Positions 5,072-51,737 of a stretch of 64,000 nt of DNA are shown here, piece by piece. Position numbers and translations under genes: made by a program. Below the pieces are notes generated by a model. That model was not told the origin of the DNA and did no database searches. It was given only the letters and a program-made list of their open reading frames with translations. The DNA lies in assembly GCF_053078305.1 (NCBI RefSeq), contig NZ_CP166879.1; one strand, 5' to 3'. The stretch's first letter is position 1; every line of letters starts with the position of its first letter.

Positions 5072-6628
5072 ATGCACGATTACCTGCTTTTTTTACTGGG
5101 ACTTACCCCCCTTCTGGCGATGATCATTTTGATTCTGAAAGTCAAAATGCCCATACACTATTCTGTGCTTAGCACTCTCCTGCTCACGCTAATCCTTGGA
5201 GGGGTTTTCTGGCAGACGCCAGTTATGGATATGGGATCTGCTGTGGTATACGGCGCAATCAAAGGTTTGTGGCCGATTGTGATTGTCATCCTTGCTGCCA
5301 TTTACAGCTATAACCTGATGAATGCGACAAAAAGCATGGATATTCTGAGAAATGTTCTAGCCAGCGTGAGCGATGATAAACGTATCCAGGTTCTTCTTAT
5401 CTCATGGTGTTTTGGCGGATTTCTTGAGGCGGCCGCCGGATACGGTACAGCGGTAGCAATCCCCATAGGTATACTCATTGCACTGGGCTTTAACCCACTA
5501 AAAGCAGCGATTGCATCACTGGTTGCTAATACAGTCCCTACAGCGTTTGGGGCAGTCGGTATACCTGTCTCCGTGCTTGCTGAACAAGTTAATTTACCTG
5601 TAACCACACTCAGCGGGACGATTATTCTTCAGCTGGCACTGTTCAACATTCTGCTCCCCTTCGTTATCGTCACGATTATCGGTGGAGGTATGAAAGCTAT
5701 ACGAGGCGTAGGGTTAATTACCCTGATGTGCGGTATTAGCACATTGATACCTCAGTATCTGGTGGCTGTTAATCTTGGCGCAGAGCTCCCGGCTTTCGCA
5801 GGAAGTCTTGTCAGTCTGATCGTTATAGTCTTTATGGCAAAAAACCGTAAAGAAAAAACAGAACCTGAATTTCTTATTGAGAGTTCAGCAGATAGCGCCA
5901 GCGCACTTTCATACTCTCGTGGGGCGTTGTTACGTGCGTGCTCAATCTACATTCTGATCTTTCTGTTCATTCTGCTTTGCTCTCCACTGTTCCCGACGAT
6001 AAAAAGTGCAGTGTCTCAGATTGCCTCGTCACTCACCTTCTCTCTGAGTAACGGCAGCAATCTGTCGATGAAAATTGAATGGATCGCAACCCCCGGTGTT
6101 CTGATTATCATTGCCAGTGTTATTGGCGGCTTGATACAGAAAGCATCCCTGTCATGCCTGTTAAACGTATTTGTCAGCACGGTAAAACAACTTAAAAACT
6201 CCATTATTGCCATTTCTGCGATTGTTGCCATGGCAACGGTAATGGATGTCTGTGGGTTGATTGGCACTCTGGCACAGAGCCTTGTGGATCTGACTGGTGG
6301 GGCCTACCTCTTCATTGCTCCGGTTATCGGCGCTCTTGGTACATTTGTTACTGGTAGTGACACAAACTCCAACATTCTGTTTGGTAAATTGCAGACTACT
6401 GCGGCTGAAAAATTGCATGTGGACCCGCTCTGGCTGGCTGCCGCAAATACATCTGGCGCAACAGGCGGCAAAATGATTTCTCCTCAGAGTATTGCTATCG
6501 CTGTTTCAGCCACCCGTATGGATGGTCAGGGCAGCGTAATCATGTCAGGAACACTGAAGTACTGCTTTGCTTATATTGTTATTCTTGGACTGAAAGTAGG
6601 CCTTGTCTACCACCTGTTCATGGCCTGA
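5072..6628 (+). CDS. L-lactate permease family (LctP/LldP-like) transporter, 518 aa
   Basis: Polytopic membrane protein; conserved LctP blocks (GLWPI, CFGGFLEAAAGYG, TGSDTNSN, GGKMISPQSIAIA) recalled from LldP/GlcA. Confidence 0.75.
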   Translation: MHDYLLFLLGLTPLLAMIILILKVKMPIHYSVLSTLLLTLILGGVFWQTPVMDMGSAVVYGAIKGLWPIVIVILAAIYSYNLMNATKSMDILRNVLASVSDDKRIQVLLISWCFGGFLEAAAGYGTAVAIPIGILIALGFNPLKAAIASLVANTVPTAFGAVGIPVSVLAEQVNLPVTTLSGTIILQLALFNILLPFVIVTIIGGGMKAIRGVGLITLMCGISTLIPQYLVAVNLGAELPAFAGSLVSLIVIVFMAKNRKEKTEPEFLIESSADSASALSYSRGALLRACSIYILIFLFILLCSPLFPTIKSAVSQIASSLTFSLSNGSNLSMKIEWIATPGVLIIIASVIGGLIQKASLSCLLNVFVSTVKQLKNSIIAISAIVAMATVMDVCGLIGTLAQSLVDLTGGAYLFIAPVIGALGTFVTGSDTNSNILFGKLQTTAAEKLHVDPLWLAAANTSGATGGKMISPQSIAIAVSATRMDGQGSVIMSGTLKYCFAYIVILGLKVGLVYHLFMA

Positions 6629-6677
6629 GAAAAAACAACAAAAGGACGTGGAATATTAATCAACAGGAGAAATTTCT

Positions 6678-7397
6678 GTGAATGTTAACTTTTTCGTCAC
6701 CTGCATTGGTGATGCGTTTAAATCCCGGATGGCACAAAAGAGTGTGCTGTTACTGGAGCAATTGGGTTGCAATGTCCATTTCCCCGAAAAGCAGGGATGT
6801 TGTGGTCAGCCAGCGATAAATGGCGGTTATGTTCGTGATGCCATCCCGGGCATGAAAAATCTCATATCTTCGCTGGAAGAGAATGACTGGCCGGTAGTAT
6901 CTCCTGCCGGGTCATGCACTTACACGATAAAAAATTACGCTCGCTATCTCAGTGAAGAACCTGAGTGGGCGGCACGAGCTGAAAAAGTGGCTGAACGCCT
7001 GCATGATTTGACATCATTTATAGTAAATCATCTTGGCATCACAGATGTTGGGGCAAAACTCAATGGTCGCGCTGTGTACCATCCCTCCTGCAGCCTTTCC
7101 CGTAAGCTGGGTGTAACCAGAGAGCCGCTTTTGCTACTTGAGAATGTACAGGGGCTTGAGCTACTGCCGTTTCACGCTCAGGAAACGTGCTGCGGGTTTG
7201 GCGGCACATTCTCTGTAAAAATGGCGGAGATCTCTGGTGAAATGGTGAAAGAGAAAGTCGGGCATATTATGGATGTTAAACCTGATTTTCTTATCGGGGC
7301 TGACGCCAGTTGCCTGCTAAACATCGGCGGTCGGCTTAACCGTGAAGGGCATCCTGTAAAAGTGATGCATATTGCTGAAGTCCTGATGCACAGATGA
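6678..7397 (+). CDS. LutA/YkgE-like Fe-S oxidoreductase (cysteine-rich CCG-domain protein), 239 aa, GTG start
   Basis: Two CCG motifs (QGCCGQP, ETCCGFGG); size and order as in lutABC/ykgEFG operons. Confidence 0.75.
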   Translation: MNVNFFVTCIGDAFKSRMAQKSVLLLEQLGCNVHFPEKQGCCGQPAINGGYVRDAIPGMKNLISSLEENDWPVVSPAGSCTYTIKNYARYLSEEPEWAARAEKVAERLHDLTSFIVNHLGITDVGAKLNGRAVYHPSCSLSRKLGVTREPLLLLENVQGLELLPFHAQETCCGFGGTFSVKMAEISGEMVKEKVGHIMDVKPDFLIGADASCLLNIGGRLNREGHPVKVMHIAEVLMHR

Positions 7398-7407
7398 GGT
7401 AAACAGA

Positions 7408-8823
7408 ATGTCTTTGAAAACAAGTGATATCAGGTTTAAAGAGCGTATCCGTATTCAGATTCAGGACCCGATCATGCGAAAAGCTGTGGCTAACGCACAG
7501 GAGCGCATAGGGACTAATCGACAGAAAATGGTTGATGAACTGGGACACTGGGAGGAATGGCGTTCACGAGCTGAACAGATTCGTCGGCATGTTCTGGAAA
7601 ATCTTGATGCTTATTTGTATCAATTGTCCGAAAAGGTTACTGCGAATGGCGGGCATGTATATTTTGCCCGTACCAGAGAGGATGCAACCAGTTACATACT
7701 GAAGGTGGCGAAAGAAAAAAACGCCAGGAAGGTTGTTAAATCCAAATCAATGGTGACTGAGGAAATTGGCATGAATGCCGTTCTTCAGAAAGCCGGGATA
7801 CCCGTGATTGAAACGGACCTTGGGGAATATATTCTTCAGCTAGCACATGAGCCACCATCGCATGTGGTTGTGCCGGCAATACATAAAGATCGCCATCAAA
7901 TCCGCAGAGTTTTACATGAACATCTGGGGTATGACGGGCCTGAAACTCCAGAAGCAATGACATTGTTCATCCGTGAGAAAATCAGACAAGATTTTCTGAG
8001 TGCTGAAGTTGGCGTAACGGGGTGTAACTTTGCCGTTGCAGAAACAGGGTCAGTCTGCCTTGTTACAAACGAAGGCAACGCACGGATGTGCACCACATTA
8101 CCTAAAACACATATTGCTGTTATGGGTATGGAGCGTATTGCTCCGACATTCCAGGAGGTGGATGTTCTGATTACCATGCTTGCAAGGAGTGCTGTCGGGG
8201 CGAGACTGACAGGTTATAACACCTGGCTTACAGGCCCCAGAGAAGAAGGACATGTTGATGGTCCGGAAGAGTTCCATCTCGTTATTGTTGACAATGGGCG
8301 TTCAGAGATTCTCGGCTCAGAATTCAGCGATGTATTGCGATGTATCCGCTGCGGTGCCTGCATTAATACCTGCCCGGCTTATCGTCAGATTGGTGGGCAT
8401 GGTTATGGTTCAATCTACCCGGGGCCAATCGGCGCGGTTATTTCCCCATTGCTTGGTGGATATGAAGACTTTAAGGATTTACCCTATGCCTGCTCATTGT
8501 GCACTGCCTGCAATGGGGTATGTCCTGTAAAAATACCTCTGGCAACGCTAATACAAAAACATCGCCAGGTTATGGCAGAGTCTGAAATCACACCATTAAC
8601 GGAACGCCGTATAACCAGAGCATTCAATTACATAAACAGCCATCCGGCGTTGTGGAAGGTAGGTATGGTTGCTGGGGCCAAAACAGCCCGTCTGTTCATC
8701 AGGAAAGGAAAAACGCCGATTAGTGTTGGGGCGATAAAAGAATGGACTGAAGCCAGAGACCTGCCATCACCTGATGGAGAAAGCTTCCGTAGTTGGTTCA
8801 AGCGACATAAGAAGGAGGGGTAA
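7408..8823 (+). CDS. LutB/YkgF-like 4Fe-4S lactate-utilisation protein, 471 aa
   Basis: Two ferredoxin-type clusters (CIRCGACINTCP, CSLCTACNGVCP); follows the lutA-like gene with a 10-bp gap. Confidence 0.75.
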   Translation: MSLKTSDIRFKERIRIQIQDPIMRKAVANAQERIGTNRQKMVDELGHWEEWRSRAEQIRRHVLENLDAYLYQLSEKVTANGGHVYFARTREDATSYILKVAKEKNARKVVKSKSMVTEEIGMNAVLQKAGIPVIETDLGEYILQLAHEPPSHVVVPAIHKDRHQIRRVLHEHLGYDGPETPEAMTLFIREKIRQDFLSAEVGVTGCNFAVAETGSVCLVTNEGNARMCTTLPKTHIAVMGMERIAPTFQEVDVLITMLARSAVGARLTGYNTWLTGPREEGHVDGPEEFHLVIVDNGRSEILGSEFSDVLRCIRCGACINTCPAYRQIGGHGYGSIYPGPIGAVISPLLGGYEDFKDLPYACSLCTACNGVCPVKIPLATLIQKHRQVMAESEITPLTERRITRAFNYINSHPALWKVGMVAGAKTARLFIRKGKTPISVGAIKEWTEARDLPSPDGESFRSWFKRHKKEG

Positions 8824-8826
8824 TTT

Positions 8827-9525
8827 ATGGAAAACAGAGAGGAATTTCTCGTTGCGATCGCCAGAAAGCTTGGCAGACCAGTAAGACATATTCCCGAAGC
8901 AATGCCGGAGCCTGTAAATACGCTGGCTACGACACGTTTAACAGAGTTGACATCAGACCAACGCTGTGAGGCGTTTATTAAATTTGCCTCGGAAGTGATG
9001 CTTGCCGAGTGTGTTCTGGTGTCGCCTGAGAACGCACCATCAACAGCCTTAGACATCTGTTGGAAGTTCGGTTCCGGGCCAGTCATTATCAGCAACGATC
9101 AACGACTGGTCGATACAGGGATTACGCCATTGCTACAAAAAGAAATGGACGCTGCTCTGTGGGATCCGGAGAAGGGCGATGAAAATATCCATCTTGCTGA
9201 AAAGGCAAAAACTGGTGTCGTTTTCGCTGAGTATGGGCTGACAGAATCAGGAGGCATTGTCTTATTCTCCGCACCAGAACGTGGGCGCTCAGTAAGCCTT
9301 TTGCCTGAAGCATCATTATTTGTTTTACGTAAAAGCACCATTCTCCCCAGAGTGGCGCAGCTTGCGCAAAAACTTCATGATATGGCTCAGGAAGGACAAC
9401 GGATGCCGTCCTGTATAAATCTGATTGGAGGCCCAAGTTCTACTGCAGATATAGAACTGATCAAAGTTGTTGGCGTACATGGTCCTGTACATGCAACCTA
9501 TTTGATCATTGATGATTGCGATTAA
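8827..9525 (+). CDS. LutC/YkgG-like lactate-utilisation protein, 232 aa
   Basis: Size and position completing the three-gene lutABC-like set; start 4 bp after the lutB-like stop. Confidence 0.65.
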   Translation: MENREEFLVAIARKLGRPVRHIPEAMPEPVNTLATTRLTELTSDQRCEAFIKFASEVMLAECVLVSPENAPSTALDICWKFGSGPVIISNDQRLVDTGITPLLQKEMDAALWDPEKGDENIHLAEKAKTGVVFAEYGLTESGGIVLFSAPERGRSVSLLPEASLFVLRKSTILPRVAQLAQKLHDMAQEGQRMPSCINLIGGPSSTADIELIKVVGVHGPVHATYLIIDDCD

Positions 9526-9981: not shown

Positions 9982-10212
9982 ACATCTGGCCACCCTGATT
10001 CCTTCCCGTAACAACTGACGCCAGACTTTACGCACATCGTATACGCACGGTATCTTTTTCTTCAGCCAGTCATCACGCTGCGCACGGGCATTGCGTTTAT
10101 CAGGATGATGTCGCTGTTGCTGACAGTGGTAATACGTTGACGGGGCAATATGCAGTTCACTGCATACCGGTCCGATCCCGTACTGCTCACGCGACTTATC
10201 CAGCAGTGGCAT
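9982..10212 (-). pseudogene. IS629 orfB, 5' 77 codons only (deletion derivative)
   Basis: MPLLDK...GIRVARC matches the IS629 OrfB N-terminus; the reading frame then runs into the inverted-repeat sequence. Confidence 0.7.
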
Positions 10213-10538
10213 TATTTTTTCCAGGGGCGGTCGAACTCCGCCTTCGCAAAATAAGTGGAAGCCTGGCGAAGGATATCGTTACTGCGGCTCAGTTCACGAT
10301 TTTCACGTTCCAGCTCTTTCAGACGCTGACGTTCAGTGGTGGTGAAACCACCATCACCGCCCCCAATATCCTGCTCATGCTGGAGTACCCAGACGTGCAG
10401 AGTCTCCGGTGTACAGCCAATCTTAGGGGCAATAGAACAAATTGCTGTCCATTGTGAGTCATATTCGCCCTGACTTTCCAGAACCATACGAACTGCCCGT
10501 TGACGGACTTCGGGGGAAAAACGTGTATTTTTAGTCAT
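10212..10538 (-). CDS. IS629 OrfA (IS3-family transposase HTH subunit), 108 aa
   Basis: MTKNTRFSPEVRQRAVRMVLESQGEYDSQW... matches recalled IS629/IS1203 OrfA. Confidence 0.8.
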   Translation of the reverse strand: MTKNTRFSPEVRQRAVRMVLESQGEYDSQWTAICSIAPKIGCTPETLHVWVLQHEQDIGGGDGGFTTTERQRLKELERENRELSRSNDILRQASTYFAKAEFDRPWKK

Positions 10539-10752
10539 CCTGTTTACCTCTTTCTCAGGGAGTTTAGTCTCCAGGATTTCCGGGGCGGTTTAACGTTTAT
10601 AACAACTCCGACCATTCAAAATGGCCGGCGGGGTATAAATCCCTATCAATTTAACATTATCTCATTTGACATGAATAACGCCGTTTATCTATTTGTTGCC
10701 CTTTAGCTAGTTCATAGCAACCTAGAAAAATTTATTCGTTGCAATATAAATG

Positions 10753-12300
10753 CTACTTGCGTAGCGATAAAATTGCCCGTGCGGTTTCAGCACGGTTATA
10801 GATCTGCATTTTTTTTATTGCAGCATCCACATCTTCACCGCTTTTCTTATTCAGTTTAATCAGAAACTCAACAGGTAATAGCGAAGCTAAATTTTCAAAT
10901 TTTGATTCAGACCAAGTAATGGTTGCAACAGCCCCTTCAGTTCTCTTAATCATTAGTTTTTTAAGTAATTCTAAACGCTCTGGCTCAACAGTTATATAAC
11001 CAATCGGCAGGGTTAATGCACTATCAGAATTAGGTTGACCGTGGTATTGCACCAAAGCAATCACATCAGGAATTAAGAGGATCTCCAAACGATCAAATTT
11101 AGCCTCTGAAGTAAGGCCAATACCGGTAGGAAAACGACCTAAGTGCCGCTTACGCTCTTGACGTTTTTCACCTTCATCTGCACTTGAGTGTAAAAGCGAA
11201 ATGCGAGCAATCTTATCATCGGCATAATTGCCAAGTATATCGCCTAGAGCGCGAGTAAAACGCGAAAGTTGACTACCATTAGCTCCCCACAGTGGTACTT
11301 TACTGCTATACCACAGCGCTTTTGGAGCTGTTTTACCTATATAATCACGTAATGCATTATGCAACATACTAATGAACAGCTTAGAATTGTGCGGCAAATA
11401 AACAGCCCCTAACATGCCGGTAGTCAATGAAGTACCGTAGCCAGTTTTACGTTGTTCACGAGCCTCTATCCAGCCGGAATAGTTGAACTTATAACCATTA
11501 GCAAATTGTAACAACACTTTATCATTTGCTAGTTTACAGAAATCTTCACAGTCGATACCGAATTCATCTAGTTTATGTTCTCCCAAAAAATCTGCGATAT
11601 GAGCTTCCAGCTCGTTTGAAAGCGGCAGCCGGGTGTTACCTAAATATTCATAGGAACGAGTAAATTTCTGCGGCTCAATGCTCCCAGCAGAAACACCGTA
11701 GCTAACCTCTATCTCTATTGGGAGCTGCACCATCTCATGCGAACTACAGCCCATTATCTTATATAATTTAGTCCGTTGACGCTCATACTCGCTGTTGCGG
11801 CTGAGCAAAAGATGGTGCCGAAACTGGGAACTAAAAGCCTCTGTTACCGCAGCAGCATCTCCCCCGATCTGATGCCGCGGCAATAGCTCTGGCAGTCCAG
11901 AAGTAAAACGACGATTTGGTTGCGGTTTACATATCGAAAGAGTTAGTAGATCGAATGCAACTTCCTCCGTACATTCTTGATATTTAACTAAACTTGGCTT
12001 CCCACCATTATTAGCTGCATGCTTACGTAGGAATGAGCTAGCCTCAATATGCCCATCAGGATTAATGTTGATCAGTCTGTTAGCCAGCAACCCATCAAGC
12101 AATACCTCTCGCTCACGATCAGTTAGACCAAAGTAATTCTGTAACTCGCTGGGATAGAGTTGATCAAAAATCAGCAGCAAGCGACATGCAAACTGTTCAA
12201 TTCCAGGCATCAGTTTTTCAGTGGTCAAAGCGCAGTTGATCTTGTAACTACGCGCAGGTAGTAAAACGGTAATCAGATTACCCAGACGTGGTTCTGACAT
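10753..12300 (-). CDS. Hypothetical 515-aa protein, partner of the NERD-kinase-helicase gene; no motif recognised
   Basis: Long ORF in low-GC DNA; its ATG overlaps the upstream stop (TAATG) indicating translational coupling. No TM segments, P-loop, HKD, HEPN or other signature seen by eye. Confidence 0.7.
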   Translation of the reverse strand: MSEPRLGNLITVLLPARSYKINCALTTEKLMPGIEQFACRLLLIFDQLYPSELQNYFGLTDREREVLLDGLLANRLININPDGHIEASSFLRKHAANNGGKPSLVKYQECTEEVAFDLLTLSICKPQPNRRFTSGLPELLPRHQIGGDAAAVTEAFSSQFRHHLLLSRNSEYERQRTKLYKIMGCSSHEMVQLPIEIEVSYGVSAGSIEPQKFTRSYEYLGNTRLPLSNELEAHIADFLGEHKLDEFGIDCEDFCKLANDKVLLQFANGYKFNYSGWIEAREQRKTGYGTSLTTGMLGAVYLPHNSKLFISMLHNALRDYIGKTAPKALWYSSKVPLWGANGSQLSRFTRALGDILGNYADDKIARISLLHSSADEGEKRQERKRHLGRFPTGIGLTSEAKFDRLEILLIPDVIALVQYHGQPNSDSALTLPIGYITVEPERLELLKKLMIKRTEGAVATITWSESKFENLASLLPVEFLIKLNKKSGEDVDAAIKKMQIYNRAETARAILSLRK

Positions 12301-15300
12301 TAGTTGTTATCTCCAAGCAGACTTTGACCACACAGGATTTGGTAGTTGGGTTCATCTACTGCAACCTGTTTACTAATAAATTCATGAACGTTTCCAAGTG
12401 CTGAATCATTATTGGTCTTTGACCACATACGCCTTGCTCCCAGAATCAATAACCTTTCTTGAGCTCGCGAAATAGCAACGTTTATTCGCGGCGCGTCGCG
12501 CAGGAAACCTTGTAGTTTGTTGGGATTATCGCGAACCAGACTGAGGATAATTATCTTGTTTTCCTGGCCCTGATATGAATCAACGGTATCGATCTTGATC
12601 AAACCACGTAACGATGCAGCCCATTCAGCCCGACTGATAGCATTGTCAATTTCCTCTTTTTGCTGACGATACATTGTGATTATACCAATAGGATATGGCT
12701 GTTCTGTGGTAATAGTTTGCTCAAGCTGTGCAATGCAGCCATCACTCGACAATGACTGCAAAGCCTCTAGCAGTAGCCGGACTTCTCGTTGATTATAGTA
12801 ACGACCATTACCCTTATGTTCTTCTGCACCTGCTTCATTAGGGCTCGAACTATCGATCCAAGTAACAGTTTTGTTCCAAGGGATTGGTAACTTGGAATAC
12901 CAATCTGGCGAGACTTTCCTCGATGAATGCAGTTTACCGATATCTTGAGCGTAAAAGCACTCCGATACTAACTCGCCAATTGGTTCTACCATTCGATATT
13001 GAGTATCGAGTGTTACGCCGCCTGTTGCTTTAAAAGCACGTTCAAAATCAGACTCATAAAAGATCCCTTTCCCGAGTTCTAATTTCTTAGAGGCTAACTT
13101 AAGATGCTGTTGATGATAGAATGGTGGCAATTGTTTATGATCCCCTACCAACAGCACCCGCTTGCCTGATTGCAGCGCTACCATCAATTCAGCAGCTTGT
13201 GCTCGGCCAGCCTCATCAACTATTACCCAATCAAAGCTGGACTCAGCTAGTTCTAGTCGACGATTCCCAACACCAACAAGAGTTCCACAAACCAATCGCT
13301 TACTTTTGAACATAAATCGATCAAATCCAGCCTCGCCGCCGCGTAATACATCCATCCACTCTTGGCTCATTTCCAATAGCTGCATAAAACGTTCAAGGTT
13401 CTCTGGATTGTTATAATTGTATTGTATGGCAACTTGCTCAGCCAACTGTCTTATCAAGGTTTCATCATAGACAAGAGTTTTCAGCAAGCTGTCATCGAAT
13501 ATTGAGTTAATAATTTCTTGTGTTCGCAGTTTAAGCTGATTGCTTTGTTCTAATAATTCAGCCAGTCGCTCTTGATGACTAATACTACTACTCTTTATTT
13601 GTTCTACTTTATCCAGCTCACGGCTATATTGGCCATATGTCACCATCAAGGGATTCAGCGTACGATGTAACTGACATAACTGTTGGACTAATAATGGGGC
13701 CATCCCTAGGCGCTTTCCTAGGGAGCTAACTCGCAGATCATATTCACGGTGAAATTTATGCTGAATCTGTCGCTGAAGAGCTTTAGTTGCAACACTTAGC
13801 ATACCCTCATCAATCATAAGTTCATTACCAATACGTACTGTATCCAGTTCCATTCCTTTCGTATGGCAGAGCTCTCGAGCCTTGATGGCTACATTATCAA
13901 CAGAGGCATGGGATTGCCCGACCAAAAGAATGTTATTCACACCGCAATGTTGATACAGATAGTGAATAAATTTTGAAATAAATGTTGTTTTACCTGTTCC
14001 AGGTGGTCCCTGCAGAACTCCAACTGGTCCAAACTCGACCAACTGTTGAAATGCCATTAGCTGCTGTTCATTAAAACGTTGTCCAGGCTGATCATAAAGT
14101 GCGCGTAATGTCTCCGCGGATGGCCGCGGTTGCATTTGCTGCATGCAGGGTTTCTGGTGGTAATCAAAATACTGTGGCAGATGCTGGATCTCTGCTTTGT
14201 TTTCAATTACCCGTTGAAGGGCTCTTTGACGCAACTCTCTTGATGATTTGTCACGGATCGATTCCAATTGTAGCTGGCTGCCGCTACTAATTCGCTTACG
14301 AGCAGCATCAAAATCAAAGCGAATAGCCAATAGACTCGGCGTAGTCTCACTTAGCTGCAATTCCCCTAATTGCACTGATTCACGCTTATCTTTAATATAA
14401 ACAATGATCTTATCATCAAGTTCAAAGCTGAGGTCAGCACCGGATTCCGTAGTATATGGGTAGAGTAAGCAACCACTCGGTGATTCCTGAAAGTCAGTAG
14501 AGTCGATGTTGACTATATCTCGTAGGTCTACTTCTGTATCAGATAATGCCTGCCATAACTCAATTGGGCTTGACTCACTACTATCGAAGTCATCTTCATC
14601 CATCTCTTGATTAGGATTAGCTCGCTCAATGATGGCATCAATTACTGGCTCGAGGTTAAACAGTAGTTCAATAAAAGTATTACGCTGATTAAGTGAGCCA
14701 CGTTGTAATGAAAGTTGAGTATTAATTTTAGCCTGGGAATATTTACCAGCCTTTATACTTTCTTCGATCGATAATCCTTTTTCATACACTATTCTATTAA
14801 TAGTGCGATTATCAGGATCTAAGTCTATCAATAGCCGCTCTCCTAGGCCAGTGATGTAACAACGCAATTCATGCGCAAAGCGTGGGTTAGATGACCAGTT
14901 ACATTGAAAATAATAGATCCCATCATTTTGTTCTAGAAGCTTCACTTCTTGCGGCCAATCATCTGTGCCCCAGCAAACAGGAATTACCTTATCCTGTGAC
15001 TCAGACGCCACAACTTGATTAATCTCAGCTTGTTCCGGTGCTCGAATTGACTGCAGCAAAGGATCGAGCGCGATAGGTATACCGTCAACGGTTTGTTTTG
15101 CGCGTTCTAGCTCAGCCTGCACCAGTACTGGCATATCTTCACTAAATAGCTCCTCCACCATACGATATACTGCAAAGCAATCTCGCCCAAAAGCATCAGT
15201 ACTTTCGGGATTCTCTGGCTGGTAGCGATTATCTGCAGTTAATTCATCACTGAATTCAAGCAATCCAATCAGAGTAATTACTGTCTGCTCCCCGACTTGT

Positions 15301-17258
15301 ACCAGCAGTTTCTCTGGGCAAAGATCTCCATGAGGTAACTGCTTTTCATGAAAAGCATGAATGGTGTTGATCAACTTTTCCGCAATTGTAAAACGTTGGG
15401 ATTGTACTAACACGTTCTCAGCAATAAACTGTGACCACGGTAGGCCATCCACATACTCGCTCACTACATACAAGCCGCCTTGTCCTAATAGTCCATAGGA
15501 CTGCACCTTAGGAGTTGGCAGATTTATATGCGTAAGCTTATCGATCCGTTGCTTAAAAGCGTGGATACGGCGGTTAACACCAGGTTGTTGAGGGGTCAAA
15601 ATAACACCATCCCACAATTTTACCTGCAGAGCTTTCCCACCTTGTTCACAGTGATAACTGATGCTGCCAGTCGTAGCAATAGCAGCAAGAGCAGAGTAAA
15701 CCATAGACAACTGTTCAGGAAGTGGAGGAAACTCAATTAACACACCAACGCTGTTCATCCCTTCGCGAAAGAATTTGTTTTGCTTTAATTCTTGATAAAT
15801 CTGGTTAGCTTCATCAAATTCTTGGCTATGTTCCTTAGTAGCTGCATTAAACTCATTGAGCATTATGTCCGCACGTGGAAAGCGTTTACTTGGCTCAAGG
15901 TTAAGAGCTTGCTCAAACCAGCTATTTAGAATACCGCTAAAAGGATCAGTTAATGGAGCTCTCCATTCAGGCATCTGTCCAGGAGTCAGTAATGATTCAC
16001 CTGCAAAACAAATACGATAAGCAATTACAGCCAACATGAATACATCTAGGCGATAGGGCTCAACTGCTTCTTCAAAAGCATCTTCGGGCAAAATATATGG
16101 AGCACTTTGCAATGTCGGACGCAATGACTCTAGGCTATTATGTCCCTCCAGTGAGGCTGCGCCAAAGCCAGTAACGACAATGCTCTTCTGATCCCCTGCG
16201 TACCATAGATTGTGCGGGTCAATATCACAATGACTGATACCCAAGCTATGTAATTCCGAGAATGGAGCTAATAATGCACGAACGCGATCAATACGCTCAG
16301 ATTTACTCCATCCGTCAGCTTCGCTATCTAGAATCTCATCTAATCGGCTAAAACTACGGCGTAACTCATACAGCTCACGGGCATCATCAGTTATATCCTC
16401 CTCGGATAGTTCCCTTACAGCACGCAACATATAATCCTGCATAGTTGCGCTGCCATGACGAACTAGGCGACCGACTCGAGTCTCACGCAGAGCTATCTCA
16501 GCCCACAATGTTTGCATTGCGTTTGCTACACCCAAGGCATCAAAGTTCCACTGCCGTAGCAGACCTCTGTGTTGACTATTGTCTTTGTGGGTAGCCCTGA
16601 ATTCGTTGTAGACCATGTGAGGGTGACTAAAGAATGGCTTATCGTTCGCAAGATAACCGCTTTCTTTTAGTGGCAAAGGCCTGACTTTTGGTCCTTCAAA
16701 GAAGGACTTAATTATAGGTAATGCCTCATCAGAATTTGGTCGAGGCTTTCCCCCTTCAAAAAGATGAAAAAAGTTAGTGTGTTGCACCAGCTTTTCGTAA
16801 TTTTTTGGGTTACCTATAGTCAAGAATTCATCACGGGTATGAACATAGCGCCTCTCACTTAATGGCAAGTTTTCAGGACCAGCTGTGCCACACAGCACTA
16901 CATGAGCCTCAACATGCAAAAAGTAACCCAGCTTACGAGATAACTCTTCCTGCAACAAATCTTTTAGTCGCAGTGCATGCTCACGCTTGATCTGATAGGG
17001 ACTTTTGCCTCGTGACTTACCATTTTGCAGCCACTTCCCCCCTTCAAATGTGATGTTACCATTCCACTCTTTAAGCTCGACTAATAGCAGACGGTCAGCA
17101 GTAATAATTAGCATATCGATTTCCATCGACCCTTGGCTATCAGTAACAACTAAGCCAGCATAGCCAAACCAACTATCTGGTAACTGCTTAACCATCATAT
17201 CAACTGTTTTGGTTTCGCTGCGGTGCAGGCCAGCACCACCTACTATCTGATACTTCAC
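12300..17258 (-). CDS. 1652-aa multidomain protein: NERD (PD-(D/E)xK-like) domain, two protein-kinase-like domains, Upf1/DNA2-like SF1 helicase
   Basis: GTG start with GGAG about 9 nt upstream; NERD-like EIDMLIIT...LLVELKEW (aa 45-64); kinase-like catalytic loops HCDIDPHNLW (aa 343-352, then TGFGAA) and HGDLCPEKLLV (aa 643-653); helicase Walker A GPPGTGKTT (aa 1085-1093), Walker B VIVDEAGRA (aa 1345-1353), VGDHKQLPP, DSYQGQE, NVAISRAQERL. Confidence 0.75.
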   Translation of the reverse strand: MKYQIVGGAGLHRSETKTVDMMVKQLPDSWFGYAGLVVTDSQGSMEIDMLIITADRLLLVELKEWNGNITFEGGKWLQNGKSRGKSPYQIKREHALRLKDLLQEELSRKLGYFLHVEAHVVLCGTAGPENLPLSERRYVHTRDEFLTIGNPKNYEKLVQHTNFFHLFEGGKPRPNSDEALPIIKSFFEGPKVRPLPLKESGYLANDKPFFSHPHMVYNEFRATHKDNSQHRGLLRQWNFDALGVANAMQTLWAEIALRETRVGRLVRHGSATMQDYMLRAVRELSEEDITDDARELYELRRSFSRLDEILDSEADGWSKSERIDRVRALLAPFSELHSLGISHCDIDPHNLWYAGDQKSIVVTGFGAASLEGHNSLESLRPTLQSAPYILPEDAFEEAVEPYRLDVFMLAVIAYRICFAGESLLTPGQMPEWRAPLTDPFSGILNSWFEQALNLEPSKRFPRADIMLNEFNAATKEHSQEFDEANQIYQELKQNKFFREGMNSVGVLIEFPPLPEQLSMVYSALAAIATTGSISYHCEQGGKALQVKLWDGVILTPQQPGVNRRIHAFKQRIDKLTHINLPTPKVQSYGLLGQGGLYVVSEYVDGLPWSQFIAENVLVQSQRFTIAEKLINTIHAFHEKQLPHGDLCPEKLLVQVGEQTVITLIGLLEFSDELTADNRYQPENPESTDAFGRDCFAVYRMVEELFSEDMPVLVQAELERAKQTVDGIPIALDPLLQSIRAPEQAEINQVVASESQDKVIPVCWGTDDWPQEVKLLEQNDGIYYFQCNWSSNPRFAHELRCYITGLGERLLIDLDPDNRTINRIVYEKGLSIEESIKAGKYSQAKINTQLSLQRGSLNQRNTFIELLFNLEPVIDAIIERANPNQEMDEDDFDSSESSPIELWQALSDTEVDLRDIVNIDSTDFQESPSGCLLYPYTTESGADLSFELDDKIIVYIKDKRESVQLGELQLSETTPSLLAIRFDFDAARKRISSGSQLQLESIRDKSSRELRQRALQRVIENKAEIQHLPQYFDYHQKPCMQQMQPRPSAETLRALYDQPGQRFNEQQLMAFQQLVEFGPVGVLQGPPGTGKTTFISKFIHYLYQHCGVNNILLVGQSHASVDNVAIKARELCHTKGMELDTVRIGNELMIDEGMLSVATKALQRQIQHKFHREYDLRVSSLGKRLGMAPLLVQQLCQLHRTLNPLMVTYGQYSRELDKVEQIKSSSISHQERLAELLEQSNQLKLRTQEIINSIFDDSLLKTLVYDETLIRQLAEQVAIQYNYNNPENLERFMQLLEMSQEWMDVLRGGEAGFDRFMFKSKRLVCGTLVGVGNRRLELAESSFDWVIVDEAGRAQAAELMVALQSGKRVLLVGDHKQLPPFYHQQHLKLASKKLELGKGIFYESDFERAFKATGGVTLDTQYRMVEPIGELVSECFYAQDIGKLHSSRKVSPDWYSKLPIPWNKTVTWIDSSSPNEAGAEEHKGNGRYYNQREVRLLLEALQSLSSDGCIAQLEQTITTEQPYPIGIITMYRQQKEEIDNAISRAEWAASLRGLIKIDTVDSYQGQENKIIILSLVRDNPNKLQGFLRDAPRINVAISRAQERLLILGARRMWSKTNNDSALGNVHEFISKQVAVDEPNYQILCGQSLLGDNN

Positions 17259-17468
17259 GTTTTCTCCTGCACCACTAAATTTTTGTTGGTGGTAGTCCAG
17301 TAAAAATGGATGTAGTTATCTAAGACAGCGCATAGATTGTGCCTGCCTAACCCTAAAAAGTGTAATTATGAAAAGTAACGCTAGAAATTCTATACCGTTC
17401 GCAAAGAGAACACTTTTCAAAGATATATCATCATCTTGAACATGTCACTATAATGGTGAATCCATAAG

Positions 17469-17630
17469 ATGCGAACACCACATCTTGTGCCACTCAGCAA
17501 ACAGGCTGTAGCCATACTGATAAAACTTCAGACATGGGCAGTTGAAAATGGTCTGGTCTTTACGGGAGCACATGACCCGCGTAAACCAATCAGCGAAAAC
17601 ACCGTAAATAAGGCCCTTAGGTGCCCTTGA
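17469..17630 (+). pseudogene. Tyrosine-recombinase (phage integrase) C-terminal fragment, about 53 codons
   Basis: Translates to MRTPHLVPLSKQAVAILIKLQTWAVENGLVFTGAHDPRKPISENTVNKALRCP*, resembling the integrase segment around the catalytic region; no N-terminal part present. Confidence 0.35.
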
Positions 17631-17725
17631 ACCACTATATCCAGACAGCCGTTGAGCTTAAGTTAACGTTACCGAGTGACGTTGATATTCCCTCGGTGAG
17701 AGATAACCAAGGCACCATGAGGATG

Positions 17726-18353
17726 CTATTCGTTATAGTGTTCGAACGCCTCCGCAAGGTTTTTTACTGCCGTTAACACGTCCGGTTTAGGTATGATACT
17801 GATGTAATCGCTCTTCATCGTTTTCACGAACCGTTCTCTCATTCCATTACTCTGAGGGCTACTGACTGCCGTCGTGCAGAGCTCCAGATTCAACTCTCTG
17901 GCGAACTGCCGTGTTTCATGAGTTGTATAAGCCGAACCGTTATCGGTCAGCCACTGGATGGGCCATCCCGGTCTATCGCCAAAGCGTTTTTCTATCGCTC
18001 CTGACATGACATCCTGCACCGTTGCTTTGCCATAACCTCCCGTGCTTGCGGCCCAGTCTATGGATTCAAGATCGCAACAGTCCAGTGCGAACGTGACACG
18101 CAGTTTTTCGTCATCATCACAACCGAACTCAAAGCCATCGGCACACCAGCGCGGGTCGCTTTCCTTCACCGATATTCGGGCCTTTATGTTCCCTCTGCGG
18201 TCGTGAAGGTTTGTCATGTAATAACAACAGGTTATTCTCGCTCATTATTCGATAAACGCGATTTGCATTCACGAACTGCAGTCCTTCGTTAAGACTGCCG
18301 TCTGAGAATAGCCCAGACACGACGATAGCCATCGAATCGCTGAACAGCGTCAT
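17726..18353 (-). pseudogene. IS2-like (IS3 family) transposase OrfB remnant, truncated and frameshifted
   Basis: 163-aa ORF contains [10 protein letters not shown]...WLTDNGS...AEAFEHYNE resembling IS2 InsD; the upstream 74-aa ORF in another frame carries the adjacent NANRVYRIM segment. Confidence 0.6.
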
Positions 18354-21712: not shown

Positions 21713-21802
21713 AACAGGTGTCCACTAGTTGAAAAGGTGGGCACCTACGTTACCAATACTGGCTTAATGGCTACATACGGCGGTCAGTTTACGCTTACTG
21801 CT

Positions 21803-23320
21803 ATGGCACTTACCATGGTACAAAAAGTCATGTCGGAGAATGCCGAAAAAGAGCGGGAATTACTGGAGAAAAGCCGGCGCATCCAGCTTCTGGAAGAAAT
21901 GCTGAAACTGGTTCGTCAACAGCGCTTCGGTAAAAAATGTGAAACGCTGGCTGGTATGCAACGCTCCCTGTTCGAAGAGGATGTTGATGTCGATATCGCC
22001 GCGCTTACCGCACATCTGGATAAACTGCTCCCGCAATCCCCTGAAGAAGACGAAAAAGCGTCCCGTTCACGCCCGATACGCAAACCCTTACCGGCTCATC
22101 TTCCACGGGTGGAAAAAATTATCCAGCCGGACACTGACCATTGCCCTGAATGTGACGAGCCGCTGCACTATATCCGTGATGCGGTGAGTGAAAAGCTGGA
22201 GTATATTCCCGTTCACTTCGTGGTGAACCGTTATGTCCGTCCGCAATACAGTTGTCCCTGTTGCCAGAAGGTGTTCAGCGGTGAAATGCCGGCACATATC
22301 CTCCCGAAAAGTGCCGTTGAGCCATCAGTCATCGCACAGGTGATCATCAATAAATACGGTGACCACCTGCCTCTGTATCGCCAGCAGCACATTTTCTCCC
22401 GAATGGGGGTGGAGCTCCCCGTCAGTACAATGGCGGATAGGGTCGGTGTTGCTGGCGCTGCACTGGCCCCGCTGGCAAAATTGTTACGCCACGAGCTTCT
22501 GACACGGGATGTTATTCATGCCGATGAAACGTCCCTGAGGCTCCCTGATACCCGGAAAGGCGGTAAATCCTGCTCCGGCTGGCTGTGGGCTTACGTCAGC
22601 GGAGAAAGAAGCAGTCCGCCGGTCGTCTGTTTTGACTCGCAGACCGGACGGGCCCTCAGATATCCTGAGGCCTGGCTGCAGGGCTGGTGTGGCGGTACGC
22701 TGGTGAGTGACGGATACAGCGTGTACAAATCTCTGGCGGATAATGACCCCGGTATTACATCTGCCTGTTGCTGGAGCCACGCAAGGCGCGGTTTCGCAAA
22801 TCTGTATAAGGCCAGCAGGGAGCCCCGTGCAGCCATGGCGCTGAGAAAAATCGCGGGTCTTTATCGCATTGAGAAGTTCATCCGTGAACGTCCTGTGGAA
22901 AAAATACGGCAATGGCGACAACGGTATTCCCGGCCGATAGTGAATGACCTGTTTGCCTGGCCTGAAGAGCAGGAGCCGTGCTGTCCGCCCGACGGACCAC
23001 TAAACAAAGCGATTAATTATATCCTGAACCGGCGCGATGAACTGAGCTGCTTCCTGAGTGACGGAGCCGTGCCCCTGGACAACAATATCTGCGAGCGTGC
23101 TATCCGCCCGGTCGTTATGGGACGAAAGGCCTGGTTGTTCGCCGGTTCACTGATGGCCGGAAACCGCGCGGCACAGATAATGAGCCTTCTGGAAACGGCA
23201 AAACGTAATGGTCTGGAGCCACATGCCTGGCTGACAGACGTCCTGGCGCGTCTGCCGGAATGGCCAGAGGAGCGACTGGCAGAGTTGCTGCCTCTTGAGG
23301 GATTTACCTTCTCCGGGTGA
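21803..23320 (+). CDS. IS66-family transposase OrfC (element B), about 505 aa; start codon lies inside the duplicated target of element A
   Basis: IS66 TnpC-like sequence; the track's longer ORF (from 21737) reads through the element A inverted repeat, so the first ATG after the repeat (21803) is preferred. Confidence 0.65.
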   Translation: MALTMVQKVMSENAEKERELLEKSRRIQLLEEMLKLVRQQRFGKKCETLAGMQRSLFEEDVDVDIAALTAHLDKLLPQSPEEDEKASRSRPIRKPLPAHLPRVEKIIQPDTDHCPECDEPLHYIRDAVSEKLEYIPVHFVVNRYVRPQYSCPCCQKVFSGEMPAHILPKSAVEPSVIAQVIINKYGDHLPLYRQQHIFSRMGVELPVSTMADRVGVAGAALAPLAKLLRHELLTRDVIHADETSLRLPDTRKGGKSCSGWLWAYVSGERSSPPVVCFDSQTGRALRYPEAWLQGWCGGTLVSDGYSVYKSLADNDPGITSACCWSHARRGFANLYKASREPRAAMALRKIAGLYRIEKFIRERPVEKIRQWRQRYSRPIVNDLFAWPEEQEPCCPPDGPLNKAINYILNRRDELSCFLSDGAVPLDNNICERAIRPVVMGRKAWLFAGSLMAGNRAAQIMSLLETAKRNGLEPHAWLTDVLARLPEWPEERLAELLPLEGFTFSG

Positions 23321-23921
23321 GTGATACCTGCCGTCAGGTGTTCGTGCACCGGGCCATAACCTGCAGTCGGGAGTTGAACTCCTGACGACAGGAAATGAGC
23401 CAGACCAGCAACCACACGGGCTGACAGCGAATAAGAACCTGAATCAGCCCGGAGTCATTCCCGGGTCAGTACATCATCACCTGCCATTAATCCCCGAGTC
23501 AGTACTTCGCGGCCTGACGCGATCACCCTACTCAGTACTTCAGAGCCCGCCTCCGGTACCTGCCTGGCGATCGCCCCTGTGCAACAAAATAAATCAACCG
23601 TTATCAGACCACGATCGTTCGTATGCGCCGCCGATGACGCGCGCCTGAAAAACGCGTCAATATGAGTTCCCCGGAAGCTTACGGAAAAGTTGAAGATCAT
23701 GCTGTTTATTTTCATCTGTATTGTCACCAGTCAGCATATGCCCCGGTCCCCGATTAGGTTGCGTGTTTTCATGGAAGGAGAGCGCCCAATAACCTCTATT
23801 GAGATTGGAGTTACTCACCGATCACTTCCACAGTAATACGCACATTACCATCATTCCTGATGGCATTGACCAGGAACATAACTACCAATAAAAATTCCCC
23901 AAAGTTGAAGTTACCGTAAGC

Positions 23922-24197
23922 CTATTTTTTATCTTCTTTTCTTTCTTGTAACTTTGCTTTTATCCAAATACCAATCCCTGCTAACATACCAGCCCCTCCC
24001 CCCACCTTTAAAGAATAAATAATATCTGCCCTCCAATCAAAAAATAAAACTTGAGTTTTAGAAAAAACTATCAGTCTACCAAGAATAGTACCTAACATTG
24101 CCATAAAAAAGATGCAAGCTATGCAGCGCATTATTAGTATGATAAGAATGTAAAAGTTGACACTCTTATTTATTTTTAATGGATTTATCAGCTTCAT
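23922..24197 (-). CDS. cdiI: CdiI-like immunity protein (small membrane protein), 91 aa
   Basis: Overlaps the cdiA 3' end by 32 bp; hydrophobic helices; position typical of CDI immunity genes. Function inferred from context. Confidence 0.55.
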   Translation of the reverse strand: MKLINPLKINKSVNFYILIILIMRCIACIFFMAMLGTILGRLIVFSKTQVLFFDWRADIIYSLKVGGGAGMLAGIGIWIKAKLQERKEDKK

Positions 24198-27100
24198 CTA
24201 GTGTTCCTTTTGTTACATTCCCGATAGCTTCACCAGTAATTGTTCCCCCAATATTACCAATAATATCAGATGTTCCCTCTTTGACAGTAGAGCCCATTGA
24301 CCCCGAGATGACTTTCCCTATACCGCCACCAAATACTGAACCTAATCCTGTCCCAATAACTGAATTTGTCGGATCCTCGCCTTTAATACTACTACCAATT
24401 GCCGCGCCGCTCATGTTGATAGGAGTTGAGACGATGATGCCTTTACCGGTTGTAGCTGCAGCTGTCACCCCAGCCATTATCGCATCCACATAACTGAAAG
24501 GACCTTTTCCAGCAAGCTGAGCAGCTGAGTTTACGCTGATACCAATTGCTGCATTAGTCGCCATACCTTTCACTGTTAACCCCAGTACGCTTCCTCCAAA
24601 CAACAAAGGAGCATCACCAATACTTGCATTAGATTTATGATACCCCCAGGTATTCATAATGCTTTGAGCCTTTGCCATTGCTTCAGTATCAGGGTTACGT
24701 TTTATATAGTCCTGTCCTGACAGTAACCCGGTAACAAGCTCCTGTGCCACCGCTGTACCGTACTCCTTTTCCATTTCTGAAGCATATACACGCAAGTAAG
24801 CTGCCAGTTCAGCACGTTCTGCGCTGTTTAATTGTGAAGGATCTTTATTAAATTTGGATACCAGAGCATCACTACGTTTATCTGCATTTTCCAGCTTAAT
24901 CAGCTCATTAGCAGTGGCTAATGTCTTATCGCCGTTCCTGATTTTCTCAATGGCTTTATCCAGTTTGTCAGAAGATGTCGCTCCCAGAAAGTTATTCTCA
25001 ACAGTCGTCTTACCTGACTGTGCGCCGGCTACCGCTGAAGCCCCCGAGTTGCCCACCAGACCACCGGCCAGGCCGGCAGCAACCGTTGCCAGTGTCGAGA
25101 CCGTCTGCTTCTCTGTCTCGCTCAGTTCACTCACCGGCTTACCGTACATCTGTGTGGCTATCATTCCCACCACCTCGCCGGTGGCAGCCCCTGCGGCACC
25201 GGCAAGGGCATTATTTCCCTGTGCCACCGCCAGCGCGGCATTCACAACCGCATGGGCGGCCACACGCCCCGCACCGTCCGGGGTGTTATTTTTGATTATT
25301 TCTGCAATGTACGGCGCAGCACCACCTGCCAGGGCTGCACTCAGATTACCACCGGCCAGTCCCTGTACCGCTGCCGTTGCAGCCTGTATCGCCTGCTGGT
25401 ATTTGCCTCCCGTTCCAAAACCGGAGGCTGCCATACCGTTATTGTAGGCCCGCTGTGCCACATCCTGTTCCGTGAACGGTTTTCCTGCTGCCTCAAGCTC
25501 CGCACGGGCCTGATTCAGTGCTGCCGGGTCCCGCTTCGCTTTCTCACCGGCTATCTGTCCTTCCGTTCTGGCAATATCTGCCACCTGGTTACCAATCTCA
25601 CCAATGAGTTGCGCCTGCTGCAGTCGCTGCTGCTCTTTTTCCCTGTCAAAGATGGGGGACAGCGTCTGATTTGCATGTGCTGCGTCACGGTTCAGGTCTG
25701 CCACATCCTGTTTCTGGCTCTGCGTATCCCGGATGGTGATATTCCCGGCAGACACTGCCGACTGCGTGGTACTGTCCGCATGGCCTTCATGATTTGCACC
25801 GACCAGCAGATTGTTTGCCATGTTCCCCAGGAAATTTCCAGCAACACTGCCACCGGTACTGAGCCCTGTACTCTGATGTTCCGTTTTAAAGTCGGCCCGG
25901 TTTTCAATGTCACTGAAGCCCAGTGTGCCGGTATCCAGCCTGTTTTTATCTGCCGTTGCCGTGGACGCAATCACCGCACCGTTCAGTTGCGTATGCTGTC
26001 CGGTGGTGACATCAAACCCGCCCCTGCCGGCAAAAATCCCCGTCTGCTCCTGTACACTGTCGTAGTTACTGTGCATTTTATCCCGGCTGAGGTTCACACT
26101 CGCCGAACCGCTCATGGACCCGAAAATGAAGCTGCCTCCGGCGCTGGCATTCTGCTGCTTACTGTCATAACGGTCACTGTCCTGCTCACTGGTCAGTGTC
26201 AGATGACGACCGGCATCCACTTTCACCGTTTCACCGCCAGCCTGCGCGCCGGTAAGCGTGGTGTCCCGCCCGCTGATAATGGTCAGCCGGTTTCCCGCAT
26301 CCACCGTGGTTTCTGTATGGGTGGTACCGTTGCCTTTTTCACTGCCCTTACCCTGGTTTGCGCTGGCTGAAACACTGATACCCCAGCCTCCGGAGCCCAC
26401 ACCAACACCGACACCCACGCTGCCACCACTGGATGTGTTCTTTCCTTCCAGCTTTGACGTGTTTTCTGCTGATACCAGATTCACGTCACGGTTTGCCTGC
26501 AGCAGAACGTTGTTCCCGGCCTTTATCTGACTGCCCTGTATCGTCAGGTCACCATCCACGCCCTTCACGCCGGAGCCGGTGGCCTGAATACTGAGGTTAT
26601 TACCTGCGGTCAGTGTACTGCCCTTCGCCACCGTCTGCTCTGACTGCTGTTCTGATTTCGAAGACTGGCTGCCGTAAGAGAGGCTGATGCCCACCGTGTT
26701 ATTATTTCCGGCATCGGCTCCCTGCGCGTCTGCCAGTCGTCCGGCCTGCACGGCCTGAGCCCCCGAGAGCGCGGCCTTCACCCCCTGCAGGGCTTCAAGC
26801 CGGCTGTTTCCGGCAGATTTCGCCGCCTGTACGGTCTCCACCGTCGTATTCAGGGCGCTGCCCGCTGTGCCGGACAGGGCAAGCGTCAGACCGGAGGTTT
26901 TCTGCTCCACCGTATGTGTCTGTACATGCTGGTCTGTGGCGGCGGTAATGCTGACCTCCTTACCGCTGAGTGCCATGTCCCTGCCGGCAATCAGGTCAGA
27001 GCCGTTGACGGTCAACCGGTTACCTGCCTGAAGGGAAACATCACCGTGAACACTCCCCACCGTGCTGCCTTTCTGTGTGGTGTCTGTTGCGGTGTCCGTG

Positions 27101-47141: not shown

Positions 47142-47250
47142 TTCATTACCTGTTACATTCTAAATAATCTCAGACAGATATTATCTCCGTGAATCCCCCG
47201 CCACCTTTCCGGTGCGCGGGGTTTTGTCTTTTTTCACCGGGAATACATGT

Positions 47251-48277: not shown

Positions 48278-48494
48278 GTTTATAGTGGTTAATGGTCTGC
48301 GAAAAGGCAGTTGAATCTCTTCATCATGCAGAACGGAATTGCACAAAACGGACTGATACTTCTCTGGCGGATGAGAGAGGGGAAGCATTTATGTCCGGGA
48401 AAAACCACTGTATCTGACCATGCTGTTTTGTACCTGCCGGTATCCACATTTGTGGGTACCGGCTTTTTTATTCACCCTCTGTAAGGAAAAGCTG

Positions 48495-51617: not shown

Positions 51618-51737
51618 CAGAACCATCGCCTCTCTGTGGTCCCGGTCATCATGATCGGGACCCGGACCGGCGCAACGGATATTCAACGCCACATTCGCTG
51701 GCATTAACAATAACATGATATTCATCACGGAGTGACT

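Follow-up and report, generated by a model that had tools for sequence, protein, structure and literature searches.

The mkoA-mkoB gene pair and its domains

The window analysed here is a whole stretch of 64,000 nucleotides from contig NZ_CP166879.1 (NCBI RefSeq assembly GCF_053078305.1). On its minus strand it carries two adjacent and co-oriented genes, mkoA and mkoB, which almost certainly represent a NERD-bearing subtype of the anti-phage system Mokosh type I. In a preliminary description, made from the sequence alone, this cassette had been presented as a candidate undescribed defence system. The two open reading frames (ORFs) were both found where that description had placed them, and the stop codon of mkoA overlaps the start codon of mkoB in the sequence TAATG. 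Upstream of mkoA the sequence reads GCAGGAGAAAACGTG, in which GGAG begins 9 nt before the GTG start codon, in agreement with what had been noted. The GC content of the cassette is 43.3%, compared with 47.2% for the left flank and 53.0% for the right flank; the cassette is indeed below its neighbours, but "much lower", as first written, is an overstatement for the left side. The genes and the domains of their products are the following.

12300..17258, minus strand: mkoA, ORF call, 1652 aa, GTG start (RefSeq WP_000877066.1, "AAA domain-containing protein")
10753..12300, minus strand: mkoB, ORF call, 515 aa, ATG start (RefSeq "hypothetical protein")
16893..17219, minus strand: NERD domain (PD-(D/E)xK-type nuclease), MkoA residues 14-122 (Pfam NERD, E 6.8e-14; putative catalytic residues D48, E61 and K63)
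15801..16646, minus strand: kinase-like domain 1, MkoA residues ~205-486, approximate bounds (Pfam Pkinase at 317-418, E 1.1e-4)
15099..15671, minus strand: kinase-like domain 2, MkoA residues ~530-720, approximate bounds (PADLOC PD-T4-6, NCBIfam Bud32)
14169..15098, minus strand: middle region, MkoA residues ~721-1030 (no significant Pfam match)
12432..14075, minus strand: Upf1-like superfamily 1 (SF1) helicase core, MkoA residues ~1062-1609 (Pfam AAA_11, E 1.2e-46; AAA_12, E 3e-45)
12001..12213, minus strand: winged helix-turn-helix (HTH), MkoB residues ~30-100
10891..11433, minus strand: C-terminal domain with a phospholipase D (PLD) fold and without the HKD motif, MkoB residues ~290-470

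The reading of MkoA as a NERD domain followed by two kinase-like domains and a Upf1-like SF1 helicase, already proposed in the preliminary description, is backed by Pfam, PADLOC, NCBIfam and the relatives found in the PDB. Kinase-like domain 2 is weak in Pfam (residues 595-657, E 0.062) and is supported by the PD-T4-6 model of PADLOC (residues 563-666, E 1.2e-12) and by the Bud32 model of NCBIfam (E 7e-7). In the helicase, we located the Walker A motif at G1084-PPGTGK1090-T and the Walker B motif at D1348-E1349, and all five helicase motifs quoted earlier occur in the translation of mkoA; its nearest solved relatives are Upf1/NAM7, Sen1, DNA2 and IGHMBP2 (PDB, E 3e-28 to 3e-18). As for the residue numbers first given, D48, E61, K63, D345 and D645 are right, but position 1091, named for the Walker A lysine, is a threonine, and the lysine itself is K1090. 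The stretch of ~300 residues between kinase-like domain 2 and the helicase shows no detectable domain, yet it is conserved within the MkoA family.

The MkoA family has a very constant length (~1615-1680 aa) and architecture across Proteobacteria. Column statistics were computed on 30 homologues, down to 30% identity. In 30/30 homologues the NERD residues D48, D55, E61 and K63 show no variation, and the helicase motifs, including K1090 and D1348-E1349, are invariant as well. The kinase-like domains gave another picture. In domain 1, R235 occupies the position of the VAIK lysine in all 30 homologues and E259 is equally conserved; in the HxD catalytic loop, H343 and D345 occur in 30/30 and N350 in 25/30; at position 363, a Ser or a Thr stands in place of the DFG aspartate, which is found in 0/30. 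In domain 2, the window MkoA keeps K547 and H643-G-D645, with K650 in place of the catalytic-loop Asn and a DFG motif that reads E668-F-S670. We observed that the three replacements N650K, D665G and D668E are present in 6/6 members of the clade of the window (at least 67% identity), whereas the remaining homologues (24/24) have N, D and D-[FY]-G at these places. As judged from these alignments, there is a coordinated loss of the metal-binding residues of kinase-like domain 2, in the enterobacterial clade of the window only.

Assignment to Mokosh type I

MkoA matched the PADLOC model PDLC03921 from end to end (1305 bits; residues 2-1642 against positions 2-1598 of a profile of 1607). An MkoA model is its top PADLOC match by a wide margin, which bears out the resemblance to Mokosh MkoA that had been noted at first. 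MkoB matched PDLC03923 (E 1.1e-61; residues 8-456 against positions 11-439 of 454). Besides these matches to curated models over the full length of both proteins, the gene pair shows the other characters of Mokosh type I, namely a Upf1-like (COG1112) SF1 helicase with intact ATP-binding motifs, a Ser/Thr-kinase domain in MkoA (the catalytic residues being incomplete in both domains in the clade of the window), an adjacent, co-oriented and conserved mkoA-mkoB pairing, and a PLD-superfamily fold in MkoB. The H-x-K-x4-D nuclease motif of PLD proteins, which belongs to the original general description of Mokosh, is absent from the window MkoB. This motif does not define the NERD subtype, since the MkoB protein of the verified system SG199 is also annotated "HTH" only. 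The labels of the subtype are "Mokosh_Type_I_A" in DefenseFinder and PDLC03921 with PDLC03923 in PADLOC.

Millman et al. described type I Mokosh as a helicase and kinase protein, MkoA, with a separate MkoB (bioRxiv 10.1101/2022.05.11.491447). Two E. coli systems of type I are given as verified in their Table S2: SG202, from H10407, with an MkoA of 1215 aa and an MkoB of 602 aa annotated "HTH-PLD", and SG199, from SEC470, whose MkoA ("Kinase-Helicase") has 1652 aa and whose MkoB, of 478 aa, carries the annotation "HTH" alone (bioRxiv 10.1101/2022.05.11.491447). Because SG199 has it, the architecture with a partner lacking the PLD motif was already in the verified Mokosh type I set. We compared the window proteins with those of SEC470, over the first 399 residues of the latter. 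MkoA is collinear with its counterpart, with 28% identity in the first 346 aligned residues (E 1e-41), and MkoB is also collinear, with 23% identity (E 5e-15).

A second published system lies much closer to the window. In the HIDEN-SEQ preprint, primers prDP0298 and prDP0299 served to clone "CFE331_Mokosh_Type_I_A_7" from a uropathogenic E. coli, and DefenseFinder reports at that locus two adjacent genes, MkoA_A and MkoB_A (bioRxiv 10.1101/2025.11.20.689424). The annealing part of the forward primer has a single match in the window, at 17790-17813 on the minus strand with 1 mismatch, and that of the second primer has a single match at 10661-10680 on the plus strand with 2 mismatches; the chance expectation for such matches in the window is 0. 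These sites bracket both genes and ~550 nt upstream, which gives one further feature.

17259..17813, minus strand: upstream region cloned with the system, presumed native promoter (CFE331 forward primer site; 156-nt integrase fragment on the opposite strand)

The upstream stretch with the forward primer site is present in 68/5426 complete E. coli genomes and is confined to those with the cassette; the set is practically that of the 69 complete genomes in which the cassette itself was found. None of the 10 loci that we fetched has the CFE331 primer sequences in their exact form; like the window, they have alleles that differ from the primers by 1-2 mismatches. When carried by E. coli K-12, the CFE331 clone restricts phage Bas54, T4 lacking alt or alpha-gt, and Bas37 mutants without alt, modA or beta-alpha-glucosyltransferase; Alt, an ADP-ribosyltransferase, counteracts the system (bioRxiv 10.1101/2025.11.20.689424). 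Hence, by primer mapping and according to the literature, an allele of the window locus defends against phages. The experiment proposed in the preliminary description, cloning of the operon with its upstream region and challenge with phages, has in fact already been done on this primer-mapped allele, and the defence function that had been predicted agrees with the phage restriction published for homologous systems, including SG199 and the CFE331 clone.

The pairing of the two genes is also conserved far from E. coli. A homologue of mkoB directly follows a NERD-kinase-helicase MkoA of 1606-1652 aa in 5 distant loci (Pseudomonas, Acinetobacter and three metagenomic contigs), where the neighbours are integrases, an MmeI-type enzyme, a type I restriction-modification (R-M) system, or GmrSD with ParDE. 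Co-occurrence of the two genes, a check proposed in the preliminary description, is observed in these loci and in the 69 E. coli genomes.

The gene pair is already known as an anti-phage system and is not a new system. The claim that it is undescribed is wrong, because both genes belong to a characterised system with the same architecture: both proteins match the MkoA and MkoB models, and a verified homologous system was published in 2022. We therefore regard a defence system distinct from any named one as hardly tenable. In its favour, MkoB has no annotation in Pfam, NCBIfam or PHROGs and no HKD motif, the RefSeq names are generic, and a literature search found no paper joining Mokosh, NERD and kinase; the curated full-length matches, the verified system of the same architecture and the cloning of an allele as Mokosh type I A all speak against it. 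Standard defence-finding tools already call the locus, so the claim of discovery falls.

The fold of MkoB and the possible effector

The window MkoB gave no match in Pfam, NCBIfam or PHROGs, and the PDB sequences searched with the profile of the MkoB family gave 0 matches at E up to 1. Independently, a Foldseek search with MkoB retrieved a set of PLD folds including NucT (E 2e-4, TM 0.50). This fold is common to the nucleases Nuc, NucT, Zucchini, BfiI and SauUSI; it also matches the non-catalytic FAM83 pseudo-PLDs and the effector-binding domain of TrmB. The H-x-K tripeptide is absent throughout the 515 residues of the window MkoB, as the preliminary description had pointed out. MkoB is a winged helix joined to a PLD-fold domain without the HKD catalytic motif.

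The MkoB family comprises 383 clusters at 50% identity, mostly of 450-530 aa and matching end to end. In the column statistics of 120 family representatives, 78% retain the His of the HKD positions (H420), the Lys position is unconstrained and no conservation is seen for the Asp, while G298, W330, W338, E406 (98%), P432 and G434 are near-invariant. We considered the segment H420-G-Q-P-N-S-D426 ... G434-Y-I-T as a degenerate HKD motif and rejected it: S, P, Q, K, R or Y occur at the Lys position, and the Asp varies too. Two perfect HKD motifs are present in the canonical PLD family of MkoB.

In the loci examined, the presence of NERD in MkoA follows the type of MkoB. In the loci with an HKD-less MkoB, MkoA bears a NERD domain in 6/6 cases (the window and the five distant loci), whereas in the loci with a canonical PLDc_2 MkoB, NERD is found in 0/2 and MkoA is shorter (1153 and 1207 aa).

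From these observations we propose the following mechanism. MkoA and MkoB would act as a complex, in which the Upf1-like helicase of MkoA, driven by ATP, would load onto a phage nucleic acid or move along it. The NERD PD-(D/E)xK domain would be the cleaving effector, a role held by the HKD nuclease of MkoB in the other subtype, and MkoB, with its TrmB-like build, would be a non-catalytic adaptor or regulator, able to bind nucleic acid or a ligand and to target or gate MkoA. The two kinase-like domains would be regulatory or scaffolding modules and not the effector, because domain 1 lacks the DFG Asp family-wide and domain 2 lacks its metal ligands in the clade of the window. Since T-even phages are protected by glucosylation of their DNA, a DNA-directed step is suggested.

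The favoured reading overall, Mokosh type I of the NERD subtype with a mechanism of this kind, appears to us very probable. Its parts do not all stand equally firm. The proposal that NERD is the effector nuclease, next to a non-catalytic MkoB, is drawn from residue conservation and from the split between the loci and is made tentatively, with a chance that we place just short of even. Somewhat more tentative is the possibility of an effector swap, in which the PLD domain of MkoB would be dead and converted into a TrmB-like sensor or adaptor, cleavage would have moved to NERD, and the clade of the window would have lost the catalysis of kinase-like domain 2. If it were true, the system of this enterobacterial clade would be a helicase-nuclease with two flanking pseudokinases and with a pseudo-nuclease as its guide. 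We found no description of an effector swap in Mokosh type I in the literature searched.

MkoB might still act as a nuclease through a non-canonical site, made of H420 with E406 or of other residues, while NERD would serve for recognition or autoinhibition. A fold shared with several true nucleases and the conservation of H420 and E406 are consistent with this, and PLD active-site mutations abolished defence in the Mokosh systems mutated by Millman et al. (bioRxiv 10.1101/2022.05.11.491447). We nevertheless consider it unlikely, given that the Lys and Asp positions of MkoB are unconstrained with no HxK at all in the window protein, that the same fold equally matches the non-catalytic FAM83 and TrmB domains, that the SG199 MkoB is annotated "HTH" only in the table of Millman et al., and that the catalytic residues of NERD are invariant, which would be unexpected for a purely structural domain.

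More doubtful still is an effector that works by phosphorylation, the kinase-like domains modifying host or phage proteins in a Stk2-like abortive infection while the helicase and the nuclease only sense. The two kinase-like domains are conserved family-wide, domain 2 being canonical (Lys, HGD, Asn, D-[FY]-G) in 24/30 homologues. In H10407, a small phage protein triggers the PLD-type Mokosh I, which behaves as an abortive-infection system, and the CFE331 system is countered by Alt, an ADP-ribosyltransferase. However, in 30/30 homologues domain 1 is without the Asp of DFG and the Lys of VAIK, and domain 2 is degenerate in all six members of the window's clade, yet the CFE331 allele, placed there by its primers, defends. 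The dependence on DNA glucosylation is also more easily explained by targeting of nucleic acid. Because the primer matches place the defending allele in the clade with the degenerate kinase, canonical chemistry of kinase-like domain 2 is probably not required for defence, so far as alignments can tell.

Several points weigh against the favoured reading and its mechanism. The association of NERD with the absence of HKD comes from 8 loci, although the split between them is clean, and with H420 kept in 78% and E406 in 98% MkoB may have a residual or non-canonical catalysis. The alignment of the HKD-less and canonical PLD MkoB families by hhalign had a probability of 0.55% (E 0.11), with a non-significant collinear N-terminal alignment only; because of this, the term "degenerate PLD", which implies descent from an active one, is an inference at the level of the fold. 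The identity of the CFE331 locus was obtained by mapping of primers with 1 and 2 mismatches. The kinship with Upf1 and the fusion of one MkoB homologue to domains that bind double-stranded RNA (dsRNA) would point to an RNA rather than a DNA target. In addition, Mokosh type I resisted purification in one systematic attempt.

The homologue with the dsRNA-binding domains is a 997-aa member of the MkoB family (P0200, locus L006, 8001-10994) with two C-terminal dsrm domains (E 1.5e-10 and 9.6e-9). It directly follows a 1625-aa NERD-kinase-helicase MkoA (L006, 3124-8001) and adjoins a type I R-M system. This fusion is a hint that the NERD subtype of Mokosh can engage dsRNA.

Mokosh is among the more prevalent of the recently described defence systems. 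What remains of value in the window is mechanistic: the fold of MkoB, the dichotomy between NERD and HKD and the decay of the kinase in the clade bear on the mechanism of type I. In view of them, "helicase plus PLD nuclease" should be used with caution as a description of Mokosh in general.

Genomic surroundings and comparison with known systems

The cassette is flanked by a fragment of an IS3-family insertion sequence (IS), an integrase fragment, a DDE transposase fragment and IS66 elements. In the truncated IS fragment just downstream of mkoB, at 10141-10257 on the minus strand, lies an ALIL pseudoknot (Rfam RF01497, 107 bits), a programmed-frameshift element of IS3-family transposases; it was the only Rfam match and is outside the cassette. 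Consensus scans for promoters and terminators around the cassette gave nothing above shuffled expectation, and the promoter-like hexamers at 17475-17447 and 17448-17420 were not above chance. The mobile-element flanks seen in the preliminary description are thus present, but its "typical defence island" fits the homologous loci elsewhere better than the window. PADLOC detected no further system in the other large ORFs of the window, which is a mosaic virulence and fitness island and not a multi-system defence island.

Such surroundings could suggest that the pair is non-defence cargo of a mobile island with a housekeeping or regulatory role, for instance in RNA surveillance or in transcription control through the winged helix-turn-helix of MkoB. 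The neighbourhood of virulence and metabolic cargo with IS debris, where no other defence system was detected, and the resemblance of MkoB to TrmB-type regulators would fit with it. Homologous systems, however, protect against phages in experiments, and homologous loci elsewhere adjoin R-M, GmrSD and toxin-antitoxin genes; we consider such a role extremely improbable.

Other loci of the island were observed in passing. Upstream of the cassette are the siderophore receptor/adhesin gene iha and an L-lactate permease/lutABC-type cluster (693-2783 and 5072-9525, plus strand). A 3037-aa protein of the filamentous haemagglutinin (FHA) type, with a TIGR01901 N-terminal domain and FHA repeats, is encoded at 24166-33279 on the minus strand, and upstream of its gene a 579-aa ORF (33832-35571, minus strand) has no NCBIfam match at E <= 1e-10. 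This locus is probably a two-partner secretion adhesin or a locus like those of contact-dependent inhibition (CDI). The GC content at the 3' end of the haemagglutinin gene (~23500-25000) is ~41-43%. Further on are an Ag43/Cah autotransporter adhesin (48420-51617, plus strand; NF033177, 1871 bits), followed by an 840-aa ORF with no NCBIfam match at E <= 1e-10 (51732-54254, plus strand), and, near Ag43, a GTPase-like ORF (47212-48123) with weak similarity to LeoBC (E 3.5e-9). In its layout, the Ag43 region is similar to a prophage remnant of the CP4-44 type. Among complete genomes, the best match is GPEC1176, with 100% identity to the window as far as 21583 and divergence from there on, at an element of the IS66 family whose transposase lies at 21737-23320. 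The island is a mosaic, the part to the right of ~21583 having a history different from that of the cassette. In E. coli strain 222, which carries an identical cassette, a gene for a TIR-domain protein lies ~10 kb away in the same island (locus L001, 36261-36965).

Among other defence systems, PglW of BREX type 2 and MAD6 of MADS share with MkoA a homologous N-terminal NERD-kinase module (MkoA residues ~10-486). The NCBIfam model of MAD6 covers residues 10-486, and those of PglW in NCBIfam and PADLOC cover ~12-419. Unlike in these two proteins, the C-terminal half of MkoA is a Upf1-like helicase. BREX type 2 was rejected, since PglW matches residues 14-417 only, with 79 bits against a cut-off of 990, as was MADS, since MAD6 reaches 132 bits against a cut-off of 460, in the N-terminal 486 residues only. 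The neighbours of the cassette are IS elements and metabolic genes, and no BREX or MADS partner genes are nearby. Nhi and Nhi-like proteins were also discarded: Nhi models do not appear in the 25 best PADLOC matches, and a kinase and an obligate conserved partner are present here.

The nearest known systems are those of Mokosh. As in SG199, the window has a two-gene operon with a 1652-aa MkoA in the order NERD-like N-terminus, kinase and Upf1-like helicase, and an MkoB of ~480-515 aa with an HTH annotation without PLD; the same PADLOC models apply to both, but the identities of 28% and 23% make the window a distant branch of the same subtype. The likeness to the CFE331 "Type_I_A" system is closer, its cloning primers bracketing exactly this cassette. 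The anti-phage Mokosh I of H10407 likewise joins a kinase to a Upf1-like helicase in MkoA, and the MkoB that follows has an HTH at its N-terminus. However, its 1215-aa MkoA has no NERD and begins directly with the kinase domain, and its 602-aa MkoB has two canonical HKD motifs (PLDc_2), which the window MkoB lacks; BLASTP of the window MkoB against a fragment of the H10407 MkoB found nothing. Mokosh type II (MkoC, YjhR of K-12) likewise combines a Upf1-like helicase with a PLD-superfamily module, and the MkoC model of PADLOC matches MkoA residues 1477-1628 (E 2e-30), but type II lacks NERD, a kinase and a separate partner, all three of which are present in the window system.

Outside of Mokosh, MkoB is built like the TrmB-family regulators, in which a winged helix is joined to a ligand-binding, non-catalytic fold of the PLD superfamily, and it is analogous to the FAM83 proteins, whose PLD folds are HKD-degenerate. 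Finally, the pairing of a Upf1-family helicase with a PLD-fold protein recalls eukaryotic Upf1/MOV10L1 and Zucchini/PLD6 of the piRNA pathway; unlike in MOV10L1-Zucchini, the PLD partner here is without the catalytic motif, and it is the helicase protein that carries NERD and the kinase-like domains.

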